From Rubripirellula sp. (GTDB lineage Bacteria; Planctomycetota; Planctomycetia; Pirellulales; Pirellulaceae): a stretch of 64,000 nucleotides of DNA. Position 1 is the first letter of the stretch. The number at the start of each line of letters is the position of its first letter. Where the stretch lies: positions 3,264,001-3,328,000 of the forward strand of contig OZ244207.1 in the NCBI GenBank assembly GCA_965216875.1. Direction: 5' to 3'. Under the pieces are notes generated by a model. The model did no database searches. It was given only the letters and a program-made list of their open reading frames with translations, and was not told where the DNA came from. Of this stretch, positions 18,632 through 18,985 are shown piece after piece. The position numbers and the translations under genes were made by a program.

Positions 18632-18985
18632 TCAATGATCGGGCTGGGGCAACAGGCGGTAGCGCCTGAAGAGTCGTCGAATCGCACCGCGAACCGGTTC
18701 GGTCGCGATTGCGGTTAGCGGAACGTCGAGATCGGCGTCGAAGAAGGGCACGCAGCCAACGTCATGGAGCTGCAAATAGCGCAGCACGCAGCGAAGTTCG
18801 GTTGCATCATCAACACCCAATAAGACGAGCCGCGGATGCTCCGACGGAGGCGGCAAAGAAGTGCGTGCCATTTCAATGCACGCATGACAGGCCTGAACAG
18901 CCTGTTGGGGCGCGGAGAGATCGCGCCGGACAAAAGCATAGACATAGGTCGGTTGTGAGGGCGGTACCTAGGTGAATCCAGTCAT
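18632..18985 (-). CDS. Peptidyl-tRNA hydrolase 2 (PTH2)-like protein with in-frame TAG at codon 6 (117 aa on read-through)
   Basis: GGAG RBS, then ATG ACT GGA TTC ACC TAG GTA... = MTGFT*VPPSQPTYVYAFVRRDLSAPQQAVQACHACIE, in frame with the track ORF 18632-18871 (HPRLVLLGVDDATEL...FFDADLDVPLTAIATEP). The RxDL/QAxHA and TA motifs resemble the PTH2 fold. Confidence 0.8.

Follow-up and report, generated by a model that had tools for sequence, protein, structure and literature searches.

Pth2 enzymes recycle peptidyl-tRNA, enzymes of this fold act on the acyl ester at the 3' end of the tRNA, and the Lys of the Pth2 G-K motif, which stands before the AQ..HA helix, has a catalytic role. The lambda bar minigenes load Pth, and prfB, the gene for release factor RF2, has an early in-frame stop that is escaped by +1 frameshift, and senses its own release factor. 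Here we report a locus in a stretch of 64,000 nucleotides from Rubripirellula sp. (contig OZ244207.1, positions 3,264,001 to 3,328,000; the whole stretch is called the window), where the frame of a PTH2-like gene is interrupted near its start by a TAG and is followed on the same strand, about 0.5 kb downstream, by a tRNA with the anticodon CUA. Synthesis of the enzyme is probably gated by this suppressor tRNA, a reading that we hold with moderate confidence, and the enzyme would in turn feed back on read-through.

As far as our literature search shows, the pairing of a PTH2-like enzyme with a suppressor tRNA, which is widespread and occurs in numerous phages and a small number of bacteria, is previously undescribed; no paper joining Pth2 and suppressor tRNA was found, subscription journals and supplements being outside the scope of the search. 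The available portion of the recoded-phage preprint (Borges et al., 10.1101/2021.08.26.457843) has no occurrence of "hydrolase" or "peptidyl", and that of the XacN1 paper (PMC5852040) reports two CUA tRNAs for which no target gene was identifiable and lists a Pth separately.

A PTH2-like gene behind an in-frame TAG

The locus has the following parts:

18992..18995, minus strand: GGAG, a Shine-Dalgarno-like site 6 nt upstream of the leader ATG
18968..18985, minus strand: leader open reading frame (ORF), ATG ACT GGA TTC ACC TAG, which is MTGFT and an amber stop
18632..18967, minus strand: PTH2-like coding frame downstream of the TAG, with 111 codons and TGA and the invariant QQAVQACHA
18156..18563, minus strand: gene 2, 135 aa (FQSRWGYHPC...WYWQT...HRWWRK...QNR), between the enzyme gene and the tRNA
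18116..18142, minus strand: GC-rich hairpin of 11 bp with no U tract, 6 nt upstream of the tRNA 5' end
18035..18109, minus strand: tRNA with anticodon CUA (amber suppressor), called by ARAGORN (as 18034-18109) and by Rfam RF00005

Direct reading of the sequence placed the leader ATG at 18985-18983 and the TAG at 18970-18968 on the minus strand, after which the frame goes on with GTA CCG ... (VPPSQPTYVYAFVRRDLSAPQQAVQACHA...PDH) for 111 codons up to the TGA at 18634-18632. If a second in-frame ATG, at 18997, were used, the peptide would be MEHLMTGFT, thus the leader has 5 or 9 codons. The preliminary description of this DNA had stated that no ATG, GTG or TTG follows the TAG in frame before 18871, and this was confirmed: the ATG at 18871 is the first (ORF list: 18632..18871) and lies downstream of the conserved core, and neither CTG nor ATH codons were found in frame past the TAG, by direct reading, before an ATT at codon 37. 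Any start downstream of the TAG would therefore delete strand 1 and the QQAVQACHA helix, which shows that translation must begin at the leader, and the complete fold requires read-through of the TAG, as had been proposed. The gene is also hidden from ORF callers as the same description held, and its only entry in the protein database is a 79-aa fragment that begins at ATG 18871 (P0002); gene callers miss or shorten stop-locked genes of this kind. A scan for sigma-70 promoters returned 0 sites.

The TAG was identical in contigs from three runs of three studies (X1 with a depth of 130, X5 and X6), so it is no assembly slip. Contig X5 comes from a strain about 1% diverged that kept the TAG, and its changes in the PTH2-like gene and leader linker, read by hand from coordinates, were three: two in the linker (P9A and T13S) and a synonymous one in the core.

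Twelve homologues with 45-65% identity were found in a large protein collection. With the window protein alone, the match to Pfam PTH2 (PF01981), a check suggested in the preliminary description, stayed below the cut-off of 23 bits (13.9-14.1 bits, E 0.06); of the 46 members of the family alignment (A2), 37 matched the Pfam model at E<=0.01 (best 1e-11). The same alignment matched Pth2 chains of the PDB over the whole length (24bt_A at E 1.1e-7, 2zv3 at 1e-6, 1rzw at 1.6e-4). The AlphaFold (AF2) model had a mean confidence (pLDDT) of 93.2, and Foldseek returned 12 matches at E<=1e-3, all of the Pth2 fold (Pth2 chains and the related Atu0240, 2gax), with template-modelling (TM) scores up to 0.74. 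Structure prediction, Foldseek and profile comparison thus agree with the fold first suggested, and the frame is predicted to encode a PTH2-fold protein. The replacement of the canonical GK Lys by Gln could likewise be seen in both hidden Markov model alignments, where this Lys stands opposite the first Gln of the near-invariant QQAVQACHA, a residue conserved to at least 90% across the PTH2-like family.

Every residue found invariant in the family alignment, in which the window protein is included, is present in the window protein, and the ratio of non-synonymous to synonymous substitution rates (dN/dS) downstream of the stop was 0.10-0.32. In the pair L010/L011, for example, 6 changes were synonymous and 2 non-synonymous; the ratio was 0.20 for L023/L024 and 0.19 for the window and L005, where dS is near saturation. 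This analysis showed that the PTH2-like gene is intact and under purifying selection. Three library proteins (P0049, P0051 and P0087) have an HD-domain phosphohydrolase fused N-terminally to the PTH2-like domain (PF01966 at E 6e-6 in P0087), an arrangement that would fit work at tRNA 3' ends.

Stops and suppressor tRNAs across related loci

Two elements had been overlooked before, the amber-suppressor tRNA (18035-18109) and the conserved gene 2 (18156-18563). The tRNA matched the Rfam tRNA model over its full length with 60 bits (E 4e-12), and has A as discriminator and no encoded CCA; none of the other tRNAs of the genome, which has 99 in all, carries a CUA anticodon. The best host matches reached 75% (Met, Asp) and 72% (Trp); it is no close copy of a host tRNA, and an origin from a host isoacceptor was rejected. 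Compensatory changes were found in 12 of 19 stem pairs when 14 related suppressor tRNAs were compared. ARAGORN labels the gene "tRNA-Pyl", a naming convention that reflects the CUA anticodon only; a pyrrolysine system was rejected, the best match to PylS (TIGR02367) having 22 bits with a cut-off of 178. Four library proteins start with M(G/S)FT-Q..., carrying Gln where the window has TAG (MGFTQ in P0020, P0027 and P0057), which hints that the residue inserted at the TAG may be Gln, but these proteins were possibly called under code 15. The hairpin just upstream of the tRNA has a folding energy of -22.9 kcal/mol (z -5.4), and similar hairpins of -22 to -40 kcal/mol formed in 7 of 8 near-clade spacers that were folded, the structure being kept and the sequence not; they stand a few bases 5' of the suppressor tRNA in L002, L003, L005, L010, L012 and L018. 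This is consistent with a single transcript that would be cut at the tRNA 5' end. Outside the window, at about 593-632 kb of contig C1, the genome has a cluster of host-atypical tRNAs (Gln-ttg, Leu-caa, Glu-ttc and Met-cat), which may be a tRNA island.

Related loci came from three sources, species genomes (3), metagenomes (80) and IMG/VR (30), of which the metagenome and IMG/VR sets overlap, and the 84 loci L001-L084 were merged by near-identical N-termini into 58 groups. A suppressor tRNA was present in 56 of the 84 loci and in 40 of the 58 groups after merging; it was present in 24 of the 30 IMG/VR loci, at least 5 of which (L095, L099, L100, L106 and L111) repeat sequences of metagenome loci. 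The PTH2-like frame had an in-frame stop in 41 of the 58 groups, which fell into these classes:

Leader TAG: 26 groups
Leader TGA: 2 groups
Internal TAG: 12 groups
Internal TAA: 1 group
No in-frame stop: 17 groups

The leader stops follow 2-12 codons, and in most of the 28 leader groups an A(A)AGGAG-like site lies 5-8 nt before the leader ATG, while the internal stops belong to a sister clade (13 groups) and lie at about residue 31-44. The motif M..(T/S)GF(T/V/A/L)-stop was found again in related loci with synonymous codon differences, and the stop position was kept across lineages only 45-65% identical. Conservation of the TAG position had been named earlier as a check, and the recurrence of the leader-stop layout in 28 of 58 groups is far beyond chance.

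Wherever a group had a stop together with a suppressor tRNA (29 of 29 groups), the stop was cognate to the anticodon. Twenty-seven were TAG with CUA, one was TGA with UCA (L023-L025) and one was TAA with UUA (L061, L068-L070), and a second leader-TGA gene adjoining a UCA tRNA was found in the IMG/VR locus L089; with the Rfam tRNA model, the UCA and UUA tRNAs reached 54-67 bits. When all conserved ORF clusters were used as tblastn queries, in-frame stops backed by at least 3 queries occurred only in the PTH2-like gene, so the loci, about 4 kb on each side, are not generally recoded. The string MNLGFT-TAG in L035 and L047-L052 was taken as a coincidence and not as a leader, because in L052 it falls where a 305-aa upstream ORF ends and was read as the C-terminus of that gene. 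Two CUA tRNAs stand in tandem in L037 (759-911), L090 (3341-3490) and L115, in L046 they are separated by about 1.8 kb, the pair of PTH2-like gene and suppressor tRNA lies within arrays of 9 tRNAs in L056 and L092, and the viral locus L086 (2990-3130) has two in-frame TAGs, one in the leader and one internal.

The window genome uses TAG as an ordinary stop: it terminates 1431 of 3457 ORFs of at least 350 codons (41%), and RF1 was found above the cut-off, by which a code-15 recoded genome was ruled out. A canonical Pth is present, and the window gene is the sole PTH2-like gene of the genome.

In 21 loci, gene 2 immediately follows the PTH2-like gene. In L004, L024 and eight library proteins (P0016, P0040, P0044, P0082, P0083, P0093, P0113 and P0144) an in-frame fusion joins it to the PTH2-like domain, and these natural fusions tie the two proteins together. 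Its structure model had a pLDDT of 93.7, and no match was found in Pfam, NCBIfam, PHROGs or PADLOC; in fold searches the best Foldseek hit had E 0.83, the best VIA-wide hit had Z 5.3 (designed helical bundles) and the protein atlas gave nothing usable. The PADLOC defence-system models matched the PTH2-like protein no more than gene 2. Small proteins encoded upstream of the clade-2 genes (A4, A5) gave probabilities below 2% in hhalign comparison with gene 2, so kinship between them is unsupported.

The family also occurs in phages (PHROGs 1866, 3668 and 34073; 239 phage records, of which 206 are Mycobacterium phages), and the Mycobacterium phage members are annotated "peptidyl tRNA hydrolase", the generic name that the family receives if it is annotated at all. 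Among four named phages examined, three had a suppressor tRNA within 600 nt: in Alice the gene that follows after 250 nt bears the annotation tRNA-suppressor (cta), in Myrna (L121 2966-3037) ARAGORN found a CUA tRNA 130 nt downstream that the record calls Ser (codon UCG), and Lak-B7 has a UUA tRNA some 590 nt upstream. In RAS14 there was no suppressor tRNA within 2.5 kb. None of the examined phage genes has the stop lock; ATG TAG GTG at Alice gp150 was not counted as one, because its GAAGG site is spaced for the GTG.

Proposed gating of the enzyme and its alternatives

We propose that the PTH2-fold enzyme gene, a partner protein and the CUA tRNA form a three-part cassette on the minus strand. 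A ribosome would start at the Shine-Dalgarno-led leader and reach the in-frame UAG after 5 codons, and the full-length enzyme would be made only if the CUA tRNA reads the UAG; otherwise RF1 would free the pentapeptide. As the full-length product needs the tRNA, enzyme output would report the activity of the suppressor tRNA. The enzyme, probably with the product of gene 2, would then hydrolyse the ester bond of the acylated (aminoacyl or peptidyl) suppressor tRNA, so suppression would induce its own antagonist and read-through would be held at a low set-point, which would matter where so many long ORFs end in TAG. We hold to the gating because the gene is intact and selected, translation starts at the leader, and the stop is conserved and cognate to the anticodon of the adjoining tRNA. 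That the PTH2-like enzyme, with gene 2 as its likely partner, de-acylates the suppressor tRNA is the most plausible of its possible activities, given the chemistry of the Pth2 fold and the fact that the suppressor is the only tRNA consistently linked to the PTH2-like family.

Several points weigh against this proposal. We infer the substrate of the enzyme from fold and linkage alone, and hydrolase activity in the PTH2-like family is itself uncertain because the GK-motif Lys is replaced by Gln. Twelve of the 41 stop-bearing groups had no suppressor tRNA in the flanking sequence examined, and in L007, L021 and L029 none was found by ARAGORN or Rfam within about 4 kb on each side. Seventeen of the 58 groups have no in-frame stop (L017 and L073 being arguable under the stop rule), and since 11 of these 17 still adjoin a CUA tRNA, the stop lock is dispensable for the job of the enzyme. 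Switches of the stop are few, with two TGA lineages and one TAA lineage, and lytic phages such as Alice and Myrna, which have little reason to spare the host, keep the pair.

In a second explanation, the stop limits the enzyme to cells or times in which the tRNA is expressed, as a coherent feed-forward gate or timer without feedback, and the enzyme works on other substrates, for example host peptidyl-tRNAs or N-acylated aminoacyl-tRNAs. The 11 stop-less groups that retain an adjoining CUA tRNA and the occurrence of the pair inside tRNA arrays of lytic and jumbo phages speak for it, and an engineered suppressor-tRNA feed-forward gate of this design is described in the available part of PMC7969014. 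However, it is hard to see why a general hydrolase should adjoin a stop-reading tRNA in 40 of 58 groups, and the lock has shifted its position, and its stop type has changed with the tRNA, which indicates a tight tie to suppression. We consider this explanation possible and, on balance, unlikely.

A third explanation makes the enzyme a helper of suppression, which recycles suppressor tRNA that has dropped off as peptidyl-tRNA or been mis-acylated, so that suppression would become a self-boosting switch. Recycling of peptidyl-tRNA is what Pth2 enzymes do, and phages that presumably want suppression retain the enzyme without the lock. But a canonical Pth is already in the host, and a self-amplifying amber suppressor would be costly with TAG as frequent a stop as it is here; such a positive loop seems to us improbable.

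The minigene model of the preliminary description took the 5-codon leader as a bar-like ORF on which drop-off would test the process repaired by the enzyme. The leaders are indeed short (2-12 codons), preceded by Shine-Dalgarno sites and ended by a stop, as expected of a minigene that loads Pth in the manner of lambda bar. But 13 groups have the stop at residue 31-44, outside any minigene, drop-off is indifferent to the type of stop and yet the stop tracks the anticodon in 29 of 29 groups, and nothing links drop-off to read-through. Because the stop of the sister clade is internal and the stop type follows the anticodon of the neighbouring tRNA, the evidence points to tRNA-mediated decoding, and this model, which is not supported, must be regarded as very improbable. 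Equally little weight can be given to an ordinary upstream ORF with the enzyme made by re-initiation or from a non-canonical start right after the stop. A GTN codon follows the stop in 20 of 28 leaders, and in some homologues it is GTG and is used by gene callers (P0003, P0007, Alice and Myrna), but the codon is GTA, GTT or GTC in the window, L002, L003, L005 and L007, and re-initiation would be indifferent to the preceding stop type and leaves the internal stops unexplained. A simple pseudogene by nonsense mutation, or a sequencing error, to which one in-frame TAG and the lack of an annotated full-length product might point, is refuted by conservation, namely the stop position kept at 45-65% identity, dN/dS of 0.10-0.32, the presence of all family-invariant residues and the identical TAG in the contigs of three runs. 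All three of these last accounts fit poorly with the internal-stop clade and the match between stop and anticodon.

Gating by the suppressor tRNA, with the enzyme acting back on it, may have a wider bearing. Orphan suppressor tRNAs of non-recoded genomes, whose purpose was hitherto unexplained, now have a conserved client gene and a protein partner. Tentatively, and with clear reservation, one might suppose that self-limiting suppression modules are widespread and have gone unrecognised, in which a tRNA, a PTH2-like de-acylase whose gene is locked by the cognate stop, and a specificity partner act as a homeostat, and that this is the target of orphan suppressor tRNAs such as those of XacN1 and Bxz1-like mycobacteriophages. 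If the homeostat is true, it lets bacteria and phages hold a stop-reading tRNA to a level that they tolerate and can tune. If the feedback is true, the cassette is a circuit of natural origin that gauges stop-codon read-through and sets a ceiling on it, which bears on the onset of genetic-code change, on the contest between phages and hosts over termination and on orthogonal suppressors in synthetic biology.

Surroundings, distribution and known systems

The cassette is flanked by copies of a repeat:

17993..18024, plus strand: 32-nt GC-rich repeat on the tRNA-side flank of the cassette
19087..19253, minus strand: the 32-nt repeat again, inverted and in two copies (19087-19118 and 19222-19253), upstream of the leader

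The upstream copies are set in a tandem unit of about 135 nt. The genome has 5 copies of the repeat at no more than 4 mismatches, of which 3 bracket the cassette in inverted orientation, and these bracketing repeats hint at mobility of the cassette; the DNA of two genomes of the same genus is too diverged to tell if the cassette is an insertion. Directly past the tRNA-side repeat lies a 165-aa ORF (17475-17972, plus strand).

A single-protein search of 40 related genomes returned 0 homologues, and a profile search of 300 other genomes of the phylum gave matches in 3, so that the distribution is sporadic. Two of these 3 genomes carry another PTH2-like subfamily with the motif LQAAQVVHAAGES (L118, 1500-1977, and L119, 1500-2266), whose genes stand just before non-suppressor tRNAs with the ARAGORN anticodons GTA (Tyr) and AAT. 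The family as a whole comprised 5156 cluster representatives at E<=1e-3, of which the weaker ones may include canonical Pth2, and 2704 at E<=1e-10.

Compared with the archaeal and eukaryotic Pth2 enzymes (PF01981; 2zv3, 3erj, 1xty and 1q7s), the window family has the same fold (TM 0.66-0.74) and a profile match over the whole length, and shares with them the R.DL strand, the ..AQ..HA helix and an acidic residue before the T-A-hydrophobic-A strand. It differs in the Gln that replaces the GK Lys and in a shorter loop after the acidic residue, and it is bacterial or phage-borne, accessory to the canonical Pth and linked to suppressor tRNAs.

Alice gp150, Bxz1 gp154 and Myrna gp84 of the cluster C mycobacteriophages belong to the same family with about 40% identity to the clade-2 members and, like the window gene, have a CUA tRNA, there 130-250 nt downstream; unlike it, they have no leader lock (the GTG start follows directly after a stop) and no gene 2, and lie within large tRNA arrays. 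The recoded phages (code 15 or code 4), among which the Lak phages hold members of the PTH2-like family, likewise use an element-encoded CUA, UCA or UUA tRNA to read their own in-frame stops, whereas here one gene is locked and not a block of late genes, and the host of the window is a bacterium with RF1 in which TAG makes up 41% of stops. With the lambda bar minigenes the leader has in common that it is a very short, Shine-Dalgarno-led ORF; its stop, in contrast, is cognate to the adjoining tRNA, and its frame continues into a conserved enzyme. A parallel in logic would be prfB, also a translation gene with an early stop whose fate reports the activity that the product controls, if the feedback that we infer here is right; in prfB the frame is shifted, whereas in the window it is unchanged and the stop would be read by a dedicated tRNA.
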